The notes under the pieces: model-generated
Database searches by the model: none
Told to the model about the DNA's origin: nothing
Seen by the model: the letters and a program-made list of their open reading frames with translations, nothing else
Assembly (NCBI GenBank): GCA_030041455.1
Contig: JASHNV010000119.1
Location: 19,787-83,786 of the forward strand
Source of the DNA: Spirochaetia bacterium
GTDB lineage: Bacteria; Spirochaetota; Spirochaetia; DAHUYW01
Length of the DNA: 64,000 bases
Direction of reading: 5' to 3'
Position numbers and translations under genes: made by a program
In this document: positions 7,272 through 60,737 of the stretch, piece by piece
How positions within the stretch are numbered: position 1 is the first letter of the stretch
How the letters are laid out: every line of letters begins with the position of its first letter

Positions 7272-7847
7272 ATGAGCTACTTCGTCATTCAAGTCATGAC
7301 GCGAAGCGAGGATCGATTCATCCGACTCGCGTCGAACGCCCTCCTCGTCGCCGCCTCTTCCGACGGCGAGCCCGGCGCCGAGGAGCTTCGACCCGGGCGC
7401 CTCTTCTGGCCGCGGCGGCGCCTGACGATCCGCAAGGGCGGCGTGAACCGGCTCTCCCTCGCTCCCATCTTCCCGGGCTACGTATTCTACGAGGCCGAGG
7501 GCCTCGACTCCCGCGCCTACTGGGAGATGAAGCGGCAGACCGGCTTCATCCGCTTCCTGAAGGACAACAGCCAGATCGAGCCGCTCGCCGGGACCGGGTT
7601 GGAGCTCCTCGTCCATTTCATCTCCTTCGGGGAGATCGTGGACAAGTCGCAGGCGTATTTCGACGAAAATCAGCGCATCCGCATTACGAGCGGCCCGCTA
7701 AAAGGGCTTGAAGGCCGCATCACGAAGGTCGATAAGAGAAGAGGACGGGCGAAGGTCAGGCTCGCCCTCTACGAGGAAGCGTTCCTCATCGACTTCGGGT
7801 TCGAACTCTTGGAAACGGCGGATGCGAATGAAAAAGGGAAGGCATGA
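7272..7847 (+). CDS. Specialised NusG-family transcription antiterminator paralog (UpxY/LoaP/RfaH-like): NGN domain plus KOW
   Basis: 191 aa. NGN-like N-terminus (YFVIQVMTRSEDRFIRL ... IFPGYVFYEAEGLDSRAYWEMKRQTGFIRFL). C-terminal KOW-like motif (ITSGPLKGLEGRITKVDKRRGRAKVRL). Not in the secE-nusG-rplK context. Lies directly upstream of polysaccharide-type genes. Confidence 0.7.
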   Translation: MSYFVIQVMTRSEDRFIRLASNALLVAASSDGEPGAEELRPGRLFWPRRRLTIRKGGVNRLSLAPIFPGYVFYEAEGLDSRAYWEMKRQTGFIRFLKDNSQIEPLAGTGLELLVHFISFGEIVDKSQAYFDENQRIRITSGPLKGLEGRITKVDKRRGRAKVRLALYEEAFLIDFGFELLETADANEKGKA

Positions 7848-9306
7848 CGGGATCTACATCGTGGGAGCGGGCTTCGCCGGCCGCGCGCTCGCGCGGGAGC
7901 TCAAGGACAAGGGCAACCTCGGAAGCGTGACGGCCTTCTTGGACGACGACCCCGAGAAGATCGGCGGCGCGGTGGACGGCATTCCGGTCTACGGTCCGAT
8001 CGCCGACGTCGAGAAGTTCATGGCGCGCGCTCCGGCGAGCGAGGCGCTCATCGCGCTCCCGTCGAGCGCGCGCGAGCGGCTGAAGAGCATCTACTGCACG
8101 CTCTCGCGCGCCGATTTCGAGCGGATCCGCATCCTTCCGGATTTGAGCCAGATCGTGGACGGCGAGGCGCATCTCATCCAAGCCCGCGAGATCGACGCCG
8201 ACGATCTCCTCGGGCGCAGCCCGGTCAACATCGGCCTGAAGAAAAGCCTCGACTATCTTCGCGGCAGACGGGTCGTCATCACCGGAGCGGGGGGAAGCAT
8301 CGGACGCGAGCTCGCCCGCCAGCTCCTCCACGGCGGCGCCGAGCGGCTCTACCTGCTCGACCACGAAGAGAACAGCATCTACGAAATCGACAAGGAGCTC
8401 CACCTCCTCCAAGAAGAGGGGGTCGGCGAGAAGGCGACGGTCGTCCCGGTTCTCGGGGACCTCCAGGACCGCGACTACGTTCGCTTCATCCTGCGGCGCC
8501 TGCGCGCGGACGTCGTCTTTCACGCCGCCGCCTACAAGCACGTTCCGATGCTCGAGTACAACCCGATCGAGGCCGTCAAGAACAACACGTTCGGCACCAA
8601 GAATCTCGTGGACGCCGCGATCGAGTGCGGAATCCCGCGCTTCGTGTTCATCTCCACCGACAAGGCGGTCCGCCCCAACTCGGTCTACGGCGCGTCGAAA
8701 ATGCTCGCCGAAGAGATCGTGCTCAAGCGGCGGCCCGGCCGCGGCGACTTCATGGTCGTCCGCTTCGGCAACGTGCTCGGCTCGCGCGGGAGCATCGTCC
8801 CGCTGTTCAAGCGCCAAATCCTGAAAGGGGGGCCGGTCACGGTGACCCATCCGGAGATGAGCCGGTTCTTCATGACGATTCCGGAAGCCTCCTCGCTCGT
8901 CCTGAAGGCCGGGGGCGTCGGCAAGGGCGGCGACCTCTACATCCTCGACATGGGCGAGCCTATCCTCATCCGCGACCTCGCCGAGTCCATGATCCGCTTT
9001 TACGGCTTCGAGCCCGAAACGGAGATCCCGATCTCCTACATCGGACTGCGTCCCGGCGAGAAGATGCACGAAACCCTCTGGGACACCGACGAGCGGCCCA
9101 TGCCGACGGGATACTCGCGGATCAACCGGCTTCCGCGGGGAGAGCGGTTCAACGGATCGTTCGACTGCCTCCTCTCGAAGCTCCACGCCGTCTGTTTCTT
9201 CGATCCCGACAAGCCGGCGCTCTATCGCAACCGGCGCGAGCTTCGCGCGGTCCTCCGCGAGTACATCCCCTCGATCGAAGCGCCGCGCGATGAACCCGAA
9301 TACTGA
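7828..9306 (+). CDS. Nucleotide-sugar 4,6-dehydratase, CapD/PglF/WbpM family (soluble form without N-terminal TM domain)
   Basis: Two Rossmann motifs (IVGAGFAGRALAREL and VITGAGGSIGRELARQL). Catalytic region conserved with PglF/CapD (FISTDKAVRPNSVYGASK). Start taken at MKKGRHDG; it overlaps the NusG-paralog stop by about 20 nt. Confidence 0.8.
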   Translation: MKKGRHDGIYIVGAGFAGRALARELKDKGNLGSVTAFLDDDPEKIGGAVDGIPVYGPIADVEKFMARAPASEALIALPSSARERLKSIYCTLSRADFERIRILPDLSQIVDGEAHLIQAREIDADDLLGRSPVNIGLKKSLDYLRGRRVVITGAGGSIGRELARQLLHGGAERLYLLDHEENSIYEIDKELHLLQEEGVGEKATVVPVLGDLQDRDYVRFILRRLRADVVFHAAAYKHVPMLEYNPIEAVKNNTFGTKNLVDAAIECGIPRFVFISTDKAVRPNSVYGASKMLAEEIVLKRRPGRGDFMVVRFGNVLGSRGSIVPLFKRQILKGGPVTVTHPEMSRFFMTIPEASSLVLKAGGVGKGGDLYILDMGEPILIRDLAESMIRFYGFEPETEIPISYIGLRPGEKMHETLWDTDERPMPTGYSRINRLPRGERFNGSFDCLLSKLHAVCFFDPDKPALYRNRRELRAVLREYIPSIEAPRDEPEY

Positions 9307-10522
9307 GCGCTTCATCCCCTTCGCGCTTCCGTCGATCGGCGAAGAGGAGGAGCGCGGCGTCGTCGAGGTCCTCCGATCGGGATGGCTTACGACCGGACCG
9401 GTCGCGAAGCGCTTCGAGGCGGAGGTCGCCGCGCTCGTCGGCTCGCGCCACGCCCTCGCGCTCAATTCGGCGACCGCCGGGCTTCACCTCGCTCTCGAGG
9501 CGGTGGGCGTCGGAGCGGGCGACCGCGTGCTCACGACCCCCTACACCTTCGCGGCATCGGCGGAAGTCATCCGCTATCTCGGGGCGAGCCCGCTGTTCCT
9601 CGATATCGACGGGGAGACGCTCAACATCGATCCGTCCGGGGTCGAGGAGGCGCTCAGCCGGGGGCCTAGCCCGCGGGAGGGCGGCTCCATCCGCGCCGTC
9701 CTTCCCGTGCACGTCGGCGGCCTTCCCTGCCGCATGGAGCGAATCCTCGCGGCCTGCGCGGCGGCGGGGGTTCCGCTCGTCGAGGACGCCGCCCACGCCT
9801 TTCCGGTCCGGACCGAGGGGCTCGGCGGAAGGCGCGCCTACTGCGGAACCCTCGGCGCGGCGGGCGTGTACTCCTTCTACGCGACGAAGACGATCACGAC
9901 CGGCGAAGGGGGCATGCTCGTGACCGACTCCGACGAGATCGCGCGCCGCGTGTCGCTCATGCGCCTGCACGGGATCGACCGCGAGGTCTGGAACCGCTAC
10001 GTATCGCGGGACGCCGAGTGGAGATACGAGATCGTCGAGGCGGGCTACAAATACAATCTCACCGACATCGCCGCCGCGATCGGAAGGGCGCAGCTCGCGA
10101 AAGCGGCGGATTTCCTCGAGCGCCGGAGGTCGATCGCGGCGAGGTACCTCGCCGCGTTCGCCGACGCGGACTACCTCAGGCTTCCCGCGGCCTCCGACGA
10201 TCACGCCTGGCACCTCTTTACTCTCAGGATCGTTGAAGATAGACTCACGATCGACCGCGACGAGATGGTGAGAAGCCTGATGGACCACGGTATCGGTGTG
10301 AGCGTCCATTTCATCCCGCTCCACATCATGCCCTACTACCGAAACGCCTACGGCTTCAAGCCGGAGGACTTCCCGAACGCCTTGCAAGCCTACCGGACGA
10401 TATTCAGCCTCCCCATCTATCCGTCCCTGACAGACGAGCAGGTCGAGAGGGTCGTCGCCGGCGTGAGGTCCGTCGCGGAGCGTCACCGCCGAGGAAGGCC
10501 GGATGCCGGGCGAAGAGGATAG
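9290..10522 (+). CDS. DegT/DnrJ/EryC1/StrS-family PLP-dependent sugar aminotransferase (PglE/PseC-like)
   Basis: 410 aa. Conserved fold throughout (LPSIGEEEERGVVEVLRSGWLTTGPVAKRFE ... YATKTITTGEGGMLVTD). Overlaps the upstream dehydratase gene. Confidence 0.85.
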   Translation: MNPNTERFIPFALPSIGEEEERGVVEVLRSGWLTTGPVAKRFEAEVAALVGSRHALALNSATAGLHLALEAVGVGAGDRVLTTPYTFAASAEVIRYLGASPLFLDIDGETLNIDPSGVEEALSRGPSPREGGSIRAVLPVHVGGLPCRMERILAACAAAGVPLVEDAAHAFPVRTEGLGGRRAYCGTLGAAGVYSFYATKTITTGEGGMLVTDSDEIARRVSLMRLHGIDREVWNRYVSRDAEWRYEIVEAGYKYNLTDIAAAIGRAQLAKAADFLERRRSIAARYLAAFADADYLRLPAASDDHAWHLFTLRIVEDRLTIDRDEMVRSLMDHGIGVSVHFIPLHIMPYYRNAYGFKPEDFPNALQAYRTIFSLPIYPSLTDEQVERVVAGVRSVAERHRRGRPDAGRRG

Positions 10523-12542
10523 GTTCGTCGGCGACTTCCTCGGCGAGAACGCGCTCTCCTGCAACGTCATTCGCTCCGCCGTGGCGCGCGGCAGGATCCT
10601 CTCGGTGAGCCATCCGAGGCTCCCGGAGGGCGTCTTCCTCTGTAGCGCGCGGGACGTTCCCGGCGACAATCGGCTCGCCGCCCTCGGATCCCCCTGCCCG
10701 CTTCTCGCCTCGCGGGAGGTGAGCTACCGGGGCGAGGCCGTGCTGCTCCTGTGCGGAAGCGACGAGCGGGCGCTCGAGGCGATCGCCGAGGAGATCGAGA
10801 TCCGGTACGCCGAGGAGGAGCCGCTCGTCTTCTCCGCGCCGAGCGACGACCAAATCGTCGATCGGCGCGAGGTGGTGGTCGGCGATCCCGACGCGGCGCT
10901 TGCGGAAGCCTTTCAGCTCGCCGAAGGGGAATACTCAACCGGCGCCCAGGAGCACTTCGCGAGCGACCCGCACGGAGCCCTCGTCGTTCCCCGCGAGGGG
11001 GGCTGCCTCGTCTACTGCCCGACCCAGTGGCCCTTCCACGTCCGGCGCACGGTCGCCTCCGCGCTCGGCGTCGCCGAGAAGCACGTCGAGGTCAGGGTGA
11101 CGCGCATGAGCGCGCATCGGGACTCCAAGATCTGGTTTCCTTCGCTCGTCGCGGCGCACGCGGCGTTGGCGGCGCGGAAATCCGGGCGAGCGGTGCGGCT
11201 CCTCGTCGAGCCGAGCGCGACGGCCTCCTTCACTCCGAAGCGGGCGCCGACCCGCGTCTCGATCCGCACGGGACTCGACCGCGAAGGCAACCCCGTCGCC
11301 CACGACATCGGGGTCTTCGTCGACGGAGGAGCCTTCCCCGTGCTCGGCGCCGAGCTCCTCGAGCGGACGATCGAAGGCGCGCTCGGAGGCTACGCGAGCC
11401 TTCCGGTGCGGCTGCGCGGCTTTCTCGTGAAGACGAGCTCCCCTCCGCTCGACGCCTTCGTCGGTCTCGGTCTTTCACAGGGCTTCTTTGCCGCGGAAAC
11501 CCACGCTTCGCGCCTCGCCGAGCTTTCCTCGACCGATCCGTTCACGTGGAAGGAGCGAAACCTCGTGAAGACGGGGGGGCGCCTCGCCTCGGGCGGCACG
11601 CCCTCGCACTACCCTCCGCCGGAGCTCCTCAGGCGCGTCGCCGAGGTCTCGGACTTCACGCGCAAGCACGCCTCCTACGAGATGCACAAGAAGCGCCGCA
11701 CCAAGGTCCCGGAGGAGGCGAAGCCGCTCAGGGGAATCGGCCTCTCGGTCGCCTACCAGGGAAGCGGCCTCGTGGGTCGCGGGGAGGAGCGATCGAGCTC
11801 CTCGGTCGTCGCGCGGCTCGACGCCGACGGAAGCCTCCTCATCCTCACCTCCGCCGTGTCGGTCGAGGGCATGGCCGAGCGCGCGTGGATCGACGCCGCA
11901 AGCAGGATCCTCGGCATCGAGAAAAAGCGGGTCGTGGTAGCGGAGTCGCGAACGGACTCCGTGCCGGACTCCGGGCCCTCGGCGCTCTCGAGGAACGTGA
12001 CGATCGTGAGGGAGCTCGTGGAGAGCTGCTGCAACGCCGTCGTGCGAAAGCGCTTTCGGGCGGCGCTTCCCATCGAGGTCAAGAGGACCTATCGGCCTCC
12101 GCGCGCGGGCCGCTGGGACGAGGAGCGGCGGACGGGCTTCCGGTTTCCGTCTCTTTCCTGGGGCGCGGCGGTCGTCGAGACCGAGGTCGACCCGATAACG
12201 CTCGAGACCTCGATCCGCGGCATCTGGACGGCGATCTCCTGCGGCGCGGTGCTCGACCCTCGCGCGGCTCGGCGTACGATCGAGAACGGAGTTTTCCACG
12301 CCCTGTGGTGGTGCACCTCCGACCACGCCTCGGCGCGACGGCCCCGGGTTCTCGCGATTCCGCCGATCTCGGTCGACTTTCTCCCGGGGGGGCCGAAGGG
12401 CTTCGCGGGCGGGATCGAGGAGCTTGCCGGAAGCGTCATTCCGTCCGCCTACGTTTCGGCGGTCGCGCAGGCGACCGGCCGTTACTTCGACGCCCTCCCG
12501 ATCACCCCCGAGCTCGTTCACCGCTACACGGAGGAGCCATGA
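10503..12542 (+). CDS. Xanthine dehydrogenase/aldehyde oxidase-family molybdopterin-binding large subunit (divergent)
   Basis: 679 aa. Colinear with CoxL/XdhA Mo-binding subunits (for example GLGLSQGFFAAETHASRLAELSSTDPFTWKERNL aligns with the FRGFGxPQ...DP.E.R..N region). Canonical GGGFGGK is replaced by GSGLVGRGE. Overlaps the upstream aminotransferase by 20 nt. Confidence 0.7.
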   Translation: MPGEEDRFVGDFLGENALSCNVIRSAVARGRILSVSHPRLPEGVFLCSARDVPGDNRLAALGSPCPLLASREVSYRGEAVLLLCGSDERALEAIAEEIEIRYAEEEPLVFSAPSDDQIVDRREVVVGDPDAALAEAFQLAEGEYSTGAQEHFASDPHGALVVPREGGCLVYCPTQWPFHVRRTVASALGVAEKHVEVRVTRMSAHRDSKIWFPSLVAAHAALAARKSGRAVRLLVEPSATASFTPKRAPTRVSIRTGLDREGNPVAHDIGVFVDGGAFPVLGAELLERTIEGALGGYASLPVRLRGFLVKTSSPPLDAFVGLGLSQGFFAAETHASRLAELSSTDPFTWKERNLVKTGGRLASGGTPSHYPPPELLRRVAEVSDFTRKHASYEMHKKRRTKVPEEAKPLRGIGLSVAYQGSGLVGRGEERSSSSVVARLDADGSLLILTSAVSVEGMAERAWIDAASRILGIEKKRVVVAESRTDSVPDSGPSALSRNVTIVRELVESCCNAVVRKRFRAALPIEVKRTYRPPRAGRWDEERRTGFRFPSLSWGAAVVETEVDPITLETSIRGIWTAISCGAVLDPRAARRTIENGVFHALWWCTSDHASARRPRVLAIPPISVDFLPGGPKGFAGGIEELAGSVIPSAYVSAVAQATGRYFDALPITPELVHRYTEEP

Positions 12543-13021
12543 CGGTCGCTTTCATGCTGAACGGCCGAAGCGTCACGGTCAACGTCGAACCCGAACGGCG
12601 GCTCGTCGACATCCTCCGCGAGGATTTCGAGCTCACGCGCACGAAAGCCGGCTGCTACGCGGGCGACTGCGGCGCGTGCACCGTGCTGCTCAACGGCGCG
12701 CTCGCGGTGTCGTGCATGCTTCCCGCCTTCGCGCTGCGGGGCGCGAGCGTTCTCACGATCGACGGATTCTCGAGGACCCGGGACTACGGCGACATCCTTC
12801 GCTCGTTCAACGAGGCCGGCTACGCGCCGTGCGGCTACTGCGCGCAGGGGCGGATCCTCTCGGTGCACGTGCTCCTCGAGAAGCACGCCGAGCCGAGCGA
12901 GGAGCAGATCCTCTCGGGCCTCGCGGGGATCGGCTGTCAGTGCGCCGACTACTCGACGCTCCTGCGCGCGGTGAGCCTCGCGGCTTCCGCCCGCAAGAGC
13001 CGCCGGAGGGCGAGGAGGTAG
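12539..13021 (+). CDS. (2Fe-2S)-binding small subunit of the Mo-hydroxylase (CoxS/XdhC-like)
   Basis: 160 aa. Both Cys clusters present (AGCYAGDCGACTV and GYAPCGYCAQG ... GIGCQCADY). ATGA overlap with the large-subunit stop. Ends in an unusual basic tail (SARKSRRRARR) followed by TAG. Confidence 0.8.
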   Translation: MTVAFMLNGRSVTVNVEPERRLVDILREDFELTRTKAGCYAGDCGACTVLLNGALAVSCMLPAFALRGASVLTIDGFSRTRDYGDILRSFNEAGYAPCGYCAQGRILSVHVLLEKHAEPSEEQILSGLAGIGCQCADYSTLLRAVSLAASARKSRRRARR

Positions 13022-13879
13022 CGCACGGCGGAACGGCAGACGGTCATCCACGCGCCCGAGACCCTGAGCGAGCTTCTTTCGCTCTACCGGAGGCTCCCTT
13101 CCGCGCTCCTGTTCAACGGGGGCACGCACATCCTCCGCCTTCAGCCCGTCAAGCACGTCCGCCTTCCCGCGAACGTCATCAACATATCGAGGATCGAGGA
13201 GCTCCACCACATCAGCCGGACCGAGCGGCACATCGACGTGGGCTCCGCGGTGCCGATCAGCCGGATCCTCGACATCGGCGCGAACGTCCTCCCGCGCGTG
13301 ATGCATCTTGCCCTTTCCGAGCTCGGCACCCCCGCGATACGGAATCGCGCCACGCTCGGAGGCAACATCTGCATCCGAGAGCGGCGAATGAGCGCCTTTC
13401 CGGTCTACCTGCTCCTCGACATCCAGCTCGAGCTCAAGCGCGCCGGCACGACGAGGTGGATTCCGCTCAGCCGCTTCGCCCCGGGGGGCGGGAAGATCGA
13501 CCTCCAGCGAAGCGAGGTGCTCACGAGGATACGCATCCCGTTCGCGGCGTGGGATTTCGAGGTCTACCGGAGAATCAACCGGGAGACGAGCGATTCCGCC
13601 GACTTCCTGTCCTTCTGCGGGCTCGCGCGCACCGAAAAGAACGTCATCCAGGACATCCGCATCGCCTACGGGACCGCCGGATCCGAGGTGATCCGAAGCC
13701 GCGAGATCGAGAACGAGCTCGTCGGCCGGAAGCTCCCGATCGGGAAACGGGAGCTCGGCCCGATCATGGAGATCCTCGACGCGGCTCTTGCGCTCGCCGC
13801 CGACGCGCTCACGAGCTTCAAGCGGGAGCGGATTCGGAGCCTCCTCGGCTGGTTTCTCGCGGAGCTCCCGGACCGGTAG
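13022..13879 (+). CDS. FAD-binding subunit of the Mo-hydroxylase (CoxM/XdhB-like); start codon unresolved
   Basis: The conserved FAD-subunit N-terminus (VIHAPETLSELLSLYRRLPSALLFNGGTHILRLQP...) is encoded from 13022, immediately after and in frame with the TAG of the 2Fe-2S gene. No ATG/GTG/TTG occurs before the GTG at 13238. The ORF track calls 13238..13879. The C-terminal CO-dehydrogenase flavoprotein domain is present. Confidence 0.55.
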   Translation, partial: RTAERQTVIHAPETLSELLSLYRRLPSALLFNGGTHILRLQPVKHVRLPANVINISRIEELHHISRTERHIDVGSAVPISRILDIGANVLPRVMHLALSELGTPAIRNRATLGGNICIRERRMSAFPVYLLLDIQLELKRAGTTRWIPLSRFAPGGGKIDLQRSEVLTRIRIPFAAWDFEVYRRINRETSDSADFLSFCGLARTEKNVIQDIRIAYGTAGSEVIRSREIENELVGRKLPIGKRELGPIMEILDAALALAADALTSFKRERIRSLLGWFLAELPDR

Positions 13880-13895
13880 CGCCGCGCTTCGCTTC

Positions 13896-13924
13896 TTTAC
13901 AGAGCCCCGGTTGGAAGCTATAGT
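13896..13924 (+). promoter_or_regulatory. Candidate sigma70-type promoter (TTTACA-N17-TATAGT) upstream of dnaE
   Basis: Read directly from the sequence in the 215-nt intergenic region before dnaE. Spacer is exactly 17 nt. Hand-counted coordinates. Confidence 0.4.
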
Positions 13925-14094
13925 CGTTCGCGGCGGCGCGCTGGCGCCCGGCATCGGCGCGGCGTCCGAGGCGCTTCGCTCAGGGGCCTCAAGGCGGAGC
14001 GCGCGAGCGGGACATCGGAGCGGGCGGGCCGTCCGCGACGCCGGGGGTCGGAGCGTGCTTCCCGCGGGGAGCCCGGCGCGATTCTGGGGGAGCC

Positions 14095-17517
<3,423 letters not shown>

Positions 17518-58888: not shown

Positions 58889-59976
58889 TCGAGCTCGAGG
58901 GGGTCACGAAGCGCTACGGCGACGTCGTGGCGGTCGAGGATCTCTCGTTCTCGGTCGCCGACGGGGAGGTCTGCGTCCTGATCGGGCCGTCGGGCTGCGG
59001 GAAGTCGACGACGATCAAGATGATCAACCGCGTGATCGAGCCGAGCTCGGGGAGGATCCTCATCGACGGGAAGCCCGCGGGCGGCGAGCGGCCCGAGGTC
59101 CTGCGGAGGCGGATCGGCTACGTCATCCAGAGCATCGGACTTTTTCCCCACATGAGCGTCGCCGAGAACATCGCGGTCGTCCCGAAGCTCCTGCGCTGGG
59201 ACGCCGCGCGGATCCGCTTCCGGGTCGACGAGCTCCTCGCCCTGATCGGCTTGAATCCCGAGAGCTACCGCGGGAAATACCCGCGGGATCTCTCAGGCGG
59301 CGAGGCGCAGCGGATCGGCGTCGCGCGGGCGCTCGCCGCCGACCCCCCGCTCCTCCTCATGGACGAGCCGTTCGGCGCGGTCGACCCCCTCGGCAGGCTC
59401 GGCCTCCAGAGCGAGTTCCTCAAGATCCAGCGCCGCCTGCGCAAGACCGTGATCTTCGTCACCCACGACCTCGACGAGGCGATCCGCATCGCCGACAGGA
59501 TCGTCCTGCTCGACCGCGGAAGGCTCGTTCAGGAGGACACCCCCGAGCGGCTCCTCTCGGAGCCCCGGAACGGCTTCGTGAAGAGCTTCGTCGGCACCGA
59601 CCGCGCGCTGAAGCGGCTTTCGAGGTTCCTCGTCGCCGATCACCTTCGCCCGGCGCGCTCGCTCTCCGTCGACGACCCGGAGCTCGCCTCCCGCGCCGGA
59701 GCGCTGAAGGAGGAGGGAGCGCGCTTCGCGTGGATCTCCGACCGAGCCGGCAGGCTCTTCGGGTGGCTCGATCTCGCCGAGGCGCTCGGCGACCCCACGC
59801 GCTCCCTGACGCGCGCGGCGCCCTCCGAGACCGGAGTCCTCCCGACCGACAGCCTGCGCGACGCCCTGTCGAGGATGCTCGGCCAGGGGATCACGGTGGT
59901 TCCCGTCGTGGACGACGACGGAAGGCTCGTAGGCGAGCTCTCGCTCGCCGACGTCGAGCGGCTCACCGAGGTTTGA
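58885..59976 (+). CDS. Osmoprotectant ABC transporter ATP-binding protein with C-terminal CBS pair (OpuCA/ProV-like)
   Basis: 363 aa. GTG start overlapping the permease stop (GTGA). Walker A (GPSGCGKST), signature (LSGGEAQR). CBS-like C-terminal region. Confidence 0.85.
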   Translation: MIELEGVTKRYGDVVAVEDLSFSVADGEVCVLIGPSGCGKSTTIKMINRVIEPSSGRILIDGKPAGGERPEVLRRRIGYVIQSIGLFPHMSVAENIAVVPKLLRWDAARIRFRVDELLALIGLNPESYRGKYPRDLSGGEAQRIGVARALAADPPLLLMDEPFGAVDPLGRLGLQSEFLKIQRRLRKTVIFVTHDLDEAIRIADRIVLLDRGRLVQEDTPERLLSEPRNGFVKSFVGTDRALKRLSRFLVADHLRPARSLSVDDPELASRAGALKEEGARFAWISDRAGRLFGWLDLAEALGDPTRSLTRAAPSETGVLPTDSLRDALSRMLGQGITVVPVVDDDGRLVGELSLADVERLTEV

Positions 59977-59981
59977 GCACG

Positions 59982-60731
59982 TTGAAGCGCGCGAGGCGAC
60001 CGCTCCTTCCCTGGGTTCTCACCGCCGCGCTCGCGGCGGCGTTCTGCCTCCTCGCCGCCGACACCGAGATCTGGAAGGCGGGCCTTGCGCTCCTTTTTCC
60101 GGGCGCCTCGGAGCTTGTCTTCCCGCGGGAGAGCGTCGGCTCGCTCGTGGCGGAGCACCTCCTCCTCGTCGCCGTCTCGACGGCGCTCGCCGCGGCGCTC
60201 GGCATCGGAATCGGAACGTTGGTCACTCGAGGCCGGGGCAGGGCCTTCCTCGGCATCGTCGGGGATCTGACCGCGCTCGGCCAGACCGTCCCCCCGGTCG
60301 CCGTCCTCGCGCTCTCGGTCCCCCTCCTCGGTTTCGGCGCGGCGCCGACGGTGCTCGCGCTCTTTCTCTACGGCCTCCTTCCGATCCTCCGCAATACGGT
60401 CGCCGGCCTCGGCGGCGTGCCGCCTGAGGTGATCGAGGCGGCGCGGGGCATGGGGATGACCTCCCGGCAGTGCCTGTTCAAGGCGGAGCTTCCGCTCGCG
60501 ATCCCGGTCATCATGGCGGGCGTTCGAACCGCCGGGGTCGTCAACGTGGGCACCGCGGCGATCGGCGCGGTGGTCGGCGCCGGAGGTCTCGGCGCTCCGA
60601 TCATATCGGGGCTCGTCCGCGAGAACCCCTCGTTCGTGACCGAGGGCGCCGTCGCGGCGGGGCTCCTCGCGCTCGTCGTGGACCAGATTCTCGCGCGCGT
60701 CGAGTCGGCGCTCGGCGCCGTGTCGCGGTAG
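59982..60731 (+). CDS. Osmoprotectant ABC transporter permease (OpuCD-like)
   Basis: About 250 aa. Only available start is a TTG 6 nt after the ATPase stop. BPD-transport domain (LLPILRNTVAGLGGVPPEVIEAARGMGMT). Confidence 0.7.
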   Translation: MKRARRPLLPWVLTAALAAAFCLLAADTEIWKAGLALLFPGASELVFPRESVGSLVAEHLLLVAVSTALAAALGIGIGTLVTRGRGRAFLGIVGDLTALGQTVPPVAVLALSVPLLGFGAAPTVLALFLYGLLPILRNTVAGLGGVPPEVIEAARGMGMTSRQCLFKAELPLAIPVIMAGVRTAGVVNVGTAAIGAVVGAGGLGAPIISGLVRENPSFVTEGAVAAGLLALVVDQILARVESALGAVSR

Positions 60732-60737
60732 CGTCCG

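Follow-up and report, generated by a model that had tools for sequence, protein, structure and literature searches.

A candidate ACG start codon for the FAD-subunit gene of a molybdenum hydroxylase operon in a Spirochaetia bacterium

Introduction

How, if at all, is an enzyme subunit made from a reading frame that has no canonical start codon where one is expected? The question is raised by an operon in a Spirochaetia bacterium (GTDB lineage Bacteria; Spirochaetota; Spirochaetia; DAHUYW01). The operon lies in a 64,000-nucleotide (nt) stretch of DNA, here called the window, that was analyzed over its whole length (NCBI GenBank assembly GCA_030041455.1, contig JASHNV010000119.1, positions 19,787 to 83,786 of the forward strand; position 1 is the first letter of the window). 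Domain content and similarity to solved structures identify the operon as encoding a three-subunit member of the xanthine dehydrogenase/carbon monoxide (CO) dehydrogenase family. Its genes and the features within them lie on the plus strand, and the last two genes encode the 2Fe-2S iron-sulfur (FeS) subunit and the flavin adenine dinucleotide (FAD)-binding subunit. Direct reading and translation confirm that the FeS gene ends with a TAG at 13019-13021 and that the next codon, at 13022, is in the same frame, which then stays open for 285 codons up to the TAG at 13877-13879. The first ATG, GTG or TTG in this frame, according to the list of open reading frames (ORFs) and a separate count, is the GTG at 13238, which comes after 72 start-less codons.

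A sequence-only reading of the window had made these observations and had taken the two parts for a single FeS-FAD fusion gene with an amber codon within it. The observation is confirmed, and the interpretation placed on it is in part supported. The feature is real but modest, consisting of a start-codon substitution in a separate FAD gene and a coincidental in-frame stop codon upstream of it. On the sequence evidence the FAD gene may still be expressed, by weak initiation at an ACG codon coupled to termination of the FeS gene, and this reading is given a probability of roughly 0.5.

The iron-sulfur/FAD junction

The 2Fe-2S small subunit gene (12539..13021) begins with an ATG at 12539 and encodes 160 amino acids (aa) with the Pfam domains Fer2 and Fer2_2; its NCBIfam match is pucE-like (2.3e-37), under the curated cut-off. 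The FAD-binding medium subunit gene (13025..13879) has 284 codons when counted from the ACG at 13025 and ends with the TAG at 13877-13879. Two Pfam domains score above the gathering threshold in its product: FAD_binding_5 (PF00941; 3.8e-33), which covers residues 9-174 after the TAG, and CO_deh_flav_C (PF03450; 6e-07), which covers residues 181-281. The FAD_binding_5 match begins at residue 9 and at profile position 5, which puts the start of the domain no more than a few codons beyond the TAG. The earlier statement that the conserved FAD N-terminus follows the TAG immediately needs a small correction, as six codons (RTAERQ) precede the sequence TVIHAPETL.

The 72 start-less codons have the composition of coding DNA, with a G+C content (GC) of 0.65, 0.40 and 0.90 at the three codon positions (GC1, GC2 and GC3), in a window with a GC content of about 66%. 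The FAD-contact motifs of the family are kept: the residues G33, G34 and T35 (GGT) near the N-terminus, as well as T111, G113, G114 and N115 (TLGGN), are invariant in 23 sequences, the window included. The ORF that gene callers report starts at the GTG instead (13238..13879; 213 aa) and is present in public collections as P0001. It lacks the first 71 residues and with them the GGT motif, as the invariant G33-G34-T35 lie upstream of residue 72, and it is probably an annotation artefact. A long start-less leader of coding composition occurs in no second ORF of the window. In a minus-strand ORF at 59640-60737, which has high GC3 overall, the first canonical start comes only after 193 codons; the composition of its leader (GC1 0.90, GC3 0.76) suggests the shadow of a gene in another frame or on the other strand and not a second start-less gene.

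Junctions in related loci

Thirty-five related Spirochaete loci were examined, and the survey of the junction itself covered 34 loci of the Spirochaete clade, with the FeS gene detectable in 33. An ATG or GTG starts the FAD gene at the equivalent position in all 35 related loci. This canonical start lies between residues -3 and +6 of the window numbering in every surveyed locus except the distant L020 (32% identity), where it lies at +11, and in 11 of the more distant loci an ATG stands exactly at the position of the ACG of the window, that is, at the second codon after the TAG. The nearest FAD homologues, which come from Spirochaetia metagenome-assembled genomes (MAGs), are encoded on their own and have 286-289 aa; they are 59-64% identical to the window protein and align with it without frame breaks. 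Their N-termini read M-A-E, V-A-E, V-A-D or M-I-E. A fusion was found in none of the 35 related loci, and fused FeS-FAD proteins occur only among distant matches of about 27-34% identity.

In 31 of the 33 loci the FeS stop codon and the FAD gene lie in different frames, usually with the FAD start overlapped by about 14-20 nt. In the other two, L085 and L089, the stop codon is in frame even though the FAD genes have ordinary ATG or GTG starts. An in-frame arrangement is a 1-in-3 event and is, taken alone, no more than chance. The junction is labile among the orthologues: the genes overlap out of frame by 17 nt in L087 and L090, spacers of +27, +36 and +28 nt part them in L085, L089 and L005, and an in-frame stop at the same place is not conserved. 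The order of the genes is stable, with MoCoBD, FeS and FAD genes in succession both in the window and at the orthologous loci L085-L090. On this comparative evidence the FeS and FAD subunits of the window are encoded separately, like those of all the relatives examined. Two separate genes and a coincidental FeS stop codon in the same frame 3 nt upstream give the look of one interrupted frame, and the proposal of a fused gene with an amber interruption is not upheld.

Two proteins that were considered as start-less orthologues proved not to be so: P0041 is a partial sequence at a contig edge, and P0043 has a start in a GTGA overlap that the gene caller overlooked. A mis-called start in the FAD-subunit family is seen in a low-GC relative (L174; JGI Ga0376442_01742), in which the true FAD start is the GTG of a GTGA overlap with the FeS stop codon at 1426-1429 and the public gene call begins at an ATG 25 codons downstream (260 aa). 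Searches for closer relatives of the window or for an allele with ATG added little. The protein search returned nothing between 64% and 100% identity, a degenerate pattern of the junction had no match in JGI metagenomes, and a look-up of P0001 gave no additional strains. L005, at 64%, was the only close relative among the matches listed in the profile-based locus searches, and the rest were 25-40% identical.

The in-frame junction could still be bridged by translation if some ribosomes decoded the FeS TAG as a sense codon, which would yield a 446-aa FeS-FAD fusion like XdhA in place of the product of the lost start. The two ORFs are in frame, with about 6-7 codons between the stop codon and the conserved region. 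The concatenated protein is colinear in one stretch with the xanthine dehydrogenase chain 1jro_A (query 1-398 versus chain 1-405, E 3e-30), which makes a fusion structurally plausible, and any constraint on the FAD ORF would fit this route as it would any other route of expression. The FeS and FAD parts resemble XdhA of Rhodobacter capsulatus and Pseudomonas (1jro_A) and the eukaryotic XDH/AOX enzymes in the order of FeS before FAD and in a similar linker length. However, XdhA is encoded by one uninterrupted ORF, whereas the parts in the window are split by a functional stop codon and are two genes, mostly in different frames, in every close relative. No relative is fused, the genes are out of frame in nearly all of them, and an in-frame stop accompanies normal starts at L085 and L089. 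TAG is an ordinary terminator in this genome, ending 12 of the 38 high-GC3 ORFs in the window, among them dnaE and the FAD ORF itself, whose TAG coincides with the C-terminus of the orthologues.

The usual marks of programmed recoding were likewise not seen. The only tRNA gene found in the window is a tRNA-Phe, so the search, which covered the window, gave no suppressor tRNA; the RNA fold at the junction is not significant (z = 0.71), and no Rfam element was matched there. Background UAG readthrough is not known to be more efficient than initiation at near-cognate codons. As the principal explanation, fusion or readthrough is rejected on the survey of the 35 related loci and on TAG usage, and production of the FAD subunit by readthrough, for which neither the sequence nor the relatives give any need, is improbable. 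There is a very low probability that a readthrough fusion contributes to expression and that a gene fusion of the XdhA type has been caught forming. The basic tail of the FeS protein, which had been suggested to be an inter-domain linker, is conserved at the FeS C-terminus of unfused relatives and so does not serve to link fused domains; its AGG codons form the Shine-Dalgarno sequence of the FAD gene.

ACG at the start position

The codons that follow the TAG in the window are CGC ACG GCG GAA (R-T-A-E), where orthologues have ATG GCT GAA (M-A-E) or GTG GCC GAA (V-A-E), and the T-A-E-R of the window aligns with the M-A-E, V-A-E or V-A-D of the closest orthologues. The start codon of the FAD gene has thus been substituted by one transition, from ATG to ACG, at 13025..13027, and this ACG is the proposed near-cognate start. 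Initiation at a noncanonical codon, which the sequence-only reading had listed among several possibilities, survives as an alternative and can now be placed at this codon.

Two Shine-Dalgarno sequences, both read directly from the letters, precede the ACG: GGAGG at 13006-13010 and the strong GAGGAGG at 13012-13018. They are encoded in the last arginine codons of the FeS gene. Of the arginine codons in 21 genes of the window 12% are AGG, as against 3 of the last 5 in the FeS gene (P = 0.015). The 3' end of GAGGAGG lies 6 nt before the ACG, which places a near-cognate codon both at a proper Shine-Dalgarno spacing and at the start position of the orthologues. Other in-frame near-cognate codons, ACG at 13040, ATC at 13046 and CTG at 13064, were rejected as starts for want of a Shine-Dalgarno sequence at a usable spacing; initiation at the CTG would, in addition, remove the conserved P12.

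Near-cognate starts are known in bacteria, for example the AUU codons of infC and pcnB in Escherichia coli, the former being conserved and autoregulatory. The ACG of the window resembles them in being one base from AUG and correctly spaced behind a Shine-Dalgarno sequence. Unlike the AUU of infC, it is confined to one species and is a candidate start only.

The distance from the FeS TAG to the ACG is +3 nt. Spacings of -8 to +10 nt have been treated as predictive of termination-reinitiation and are enriched among genes for subunits of complexes (Huber et al. 2023; PMC10666635), and galT and galK are coupled at +3 nt (PMC12548453). The FeS and FAD genes share this spacing with galT/galK, and they too encode subunits of one complex and have the Shine-Dalgarno sequence inside the upstream gene; the known coupled pairs, unlike the window genes, restart at canonical codons. 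That ACG can direct synthesis at all was seen in E. coli, where sfGFP with an ACG start gave a product with an N-terminal methionine by mass spectrometry (bioRxiv 10.1101/063800).

A route to the FAD subunit can be proposed from these elements. The subunit would be made as a separate polypeptide, with the initiator tRNA decoding the ACG at 13025 and so contributing an N-terminal methionine, and the predicted N-terminus would be (f)MAERQTVIHAPE.... Initiation at the ACG may be aided by the strong GAGGAGG 6 nt upstream, by the operon context and by ribosomes that terminate at the FeS TAG, 3 nt away, and could reinitiate on the FAD gene. An ATG start would probably give far more product, and the FAD subunit would therefore limit the enzyme.

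Comparison of strains

The identical FeS protein is encoded on four other contigs, three of them in NCBI MAGs (GCA_030049285.1, GCA_030051855.1 and GCA_030048495.1) and one in the Logan assembly of SRR21679850. These assemblies are 99.8-99.9% identical to the window, with 1-13 differences each, most of them synonymous. Over 401 nt across the junction the five assemblies are 100% identical. A sequencing or assembly error, by which the codon at 13025 would truly be ATG or the one at 13019 a sense codon, had to be considered for a metagenome-assembled source, in which single-base errors occur. An identical junction in assemblies that are distinct from the window by single-nucleotide polymorphisms (SNPs), including an independent Logan assembly, means that it is not an assembly error; this explanation, also raised by the sequence-only reading, is rejected as hardly credible. 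The presence of the ACG in all five strains means, further, that the change predates the split of the strains.

The strains also allow the FAD ORF to be compared with its surroundings. The two assemblies L001 and L002 have no difference from the window in common and were counted as two independent lineages. Across these lineages the FAD ORF has 1 SNP, a synonymous one, in 1704 sites, as against 19 SNPs in 3226 synonymous and intergenic sites nearby. Neutral evolution would predict about 10 SNPs in the FAD ORF (binomial/Fisher P = 0.0024; 0.0031 when the comparison is limited to synonymous sites). The test, on a small sample of 20 SNPs, thus came out against neutral evolution of the FAD ORF after the loss of its start codon. 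The low SNP density of the ORF in strains that carry the ACG favours its continued expression.

A pattern of a different kind is seen in GCA_030048495.1 (L003), which shares a SNP at 12601 with L002 and L004 but one at 15624 with L001. These two SNPs are incompatible, which suggests recombination among the strains or recurrent mutation.

Continued expression or early decay

The loss of the start codon may instead mark a young pseudogene, in which the change from ATG to ACG silenced the FAD gene, the subunit is no longer made in useful amounts and decay has just begun. The molybdenum and FeS subunits would then use another electron acceptor or be the next to decay. Pseudogenization had been proposed in the sequence-only reading by way of a nonsense mutation; it survives as an alternative, by way of start-codon loss and not of the TAG. 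Loss of a start codon is a common inactivating mutation, and an open frame is weak evidence of function in a 68% GC genome in which spurious ORFs of more than 400 aa are plentiful.

Several further observations are expected under such decay and weigh against expression from the ACG. The first is that the ACG state is found in one species only (five strains at most 0.2% apart) and nowhere else among the 35 related loci, where other lineages have ATG or GTG; since no related lineage has it, it is a recent change rather than a device of regulation that has been conserved. The second is the very poor performance of ACG as a start in E. coli, where noncanonical start codons as a class reach 0.01-3% of AUG initiation (bioRxiv 10.1101/063800). 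ACG is not an annotated bacterial start codon, being absent among the annotated start codons of the 79 model bacterial replicons surveyed, and for natural ACG starts in bacteria the literature search found experimental data only. That ACG is near-cognate is not independent evidence of its use, because every one-base change of ATG produces such a codon. The third is a deletion in L003, in which one G of a GGG run at 13579..13581 is lost (CCGGGAG to CCGGAG; placed at 13581 by the alignment, about position 1424 of L003). The deletion, the sole indel in 18.7 kb compared, shifts the frame of the FAD ORF and leaves a 221-aa product without the C-terminal domain. Finally, 20 SNPs underlie the selection test, whose result could be mimicked by a recent recombination tract or a local sweep over 12650-13990.

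Against decay stand the properties of the ORF itself. Its SNP density in the ACG-carrying strains is about one tenth of the neutral value, and the sole substitution in it is synonymous. The FAD protein is no more diverged than its partners, identity to the orthologues being 0.59-0.64 for FAD, 0.54-0.59 for MoCoBD and 0.56-0.62 for FeS. The frame is intact in four of the five assemblies. The deletion in L003 is either a real loss allele, which could be limited to that strain, or an assembly error. On this evidence a young pseudogene is the main rival to expression from the ACG, less likely than it but of substantial probability.

Weak, coupled initiation at the ACG is the reading favoured here. 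The fuller claim, that an enzyme-subunit gene of a bacterium naturally starts with ACG, is held under purifying selection in that state and is enabled by a strong Shine-Dalgarno sequence and a +3-nt reinitiation junction, is put forward tentatively, at slightly worse than even odds.

Enzyme family and gene context

The first gene of the operon encodes the molybdopterin-binding large subunit (10503..12542; 679 aa), with the Pfam domains MoCoBD_1 (1.5e-42) and MoCoBD_2 (1.4e-24). Its TGA overlaps the ATG of the FeS gene as ATGA. The same Pfam domains, encoded by separate molybdenum cofactor (MoCo), 2Fe-2S and FAD subunit genes of a single operon, are also found in CoxSML/CutSML, PucCDE, XdhABC of E. 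coli and the nicotinate and quinoline oxidoreductases. The nearest solved chains by sequence are the FeS subunit of nicotinate dehydrogenase (3hrd_D; 7.8e-31) and the CutM flavoprotein (1ffv_C; 8e-15). No NCBIfam equivalog reaches its cut-off, and the best matches of the FAD subunit (xdhA, XdhB, glyceraldDH_beta and pucC) fall far below.

The operon differs from other three-subunit molybdenum hydroxylases in its short large subunit and in the sub-threshold match of the hammerhead domain (a/b-hammerhead, 28.2 bits versus a Pfam threshold of 31.3). The 679 aa of the large subunit compare with about 740-785 aa in the NCBIfam equivalog models, and the length is conserved in orthologues (677-680 aa). 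The operon differs as well in its gene order (L-S-M), in its location downstream of sugar-modifying genes and in a FAD gene that has no canonical start.

The gene context at 7708-13879 is the same in L085, L087, L089 and L090, the orthologous loci with gene calls listed. The synteny of the orthologous loci runs from Polysacc_synt_2 through a DegT aminotransferase to MoCoBD, Fer2 and FAD, followed in some by dnaE. This context suggests a role in amino-sugar or nucleotide-sugar metabolism rather than in purine or CO oxidation. Between the FAD gene and dnaE lies a gap of 215 nt that holds 3 of the inter-strain SNPs and a good sigma-70-like promoter match at 13896-13924 (TTTACA, 17 nt, TATAGT; 10 of 12 positions), which fits an operon that ends at the FAD gene and a dnaE with its own promoter.

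Significance

The locus has no bearing on a change of the genetic code and gives no evidence for an emerging FeS-FAD fusion. It should be annotated either from the ACG or as a pseudogene, as public collections hold the truncated 213-aa P0001. If the ACG is used, it would be a rare natural ACG start in a bacterium, and the locus would be a natural experiment on the extent to which a strong Shine-Dalgarno sequence and stop-start coupling can compensate for a near-cognate start. Translational coupling would then be shown to be able to rescue a start-codon mutation.

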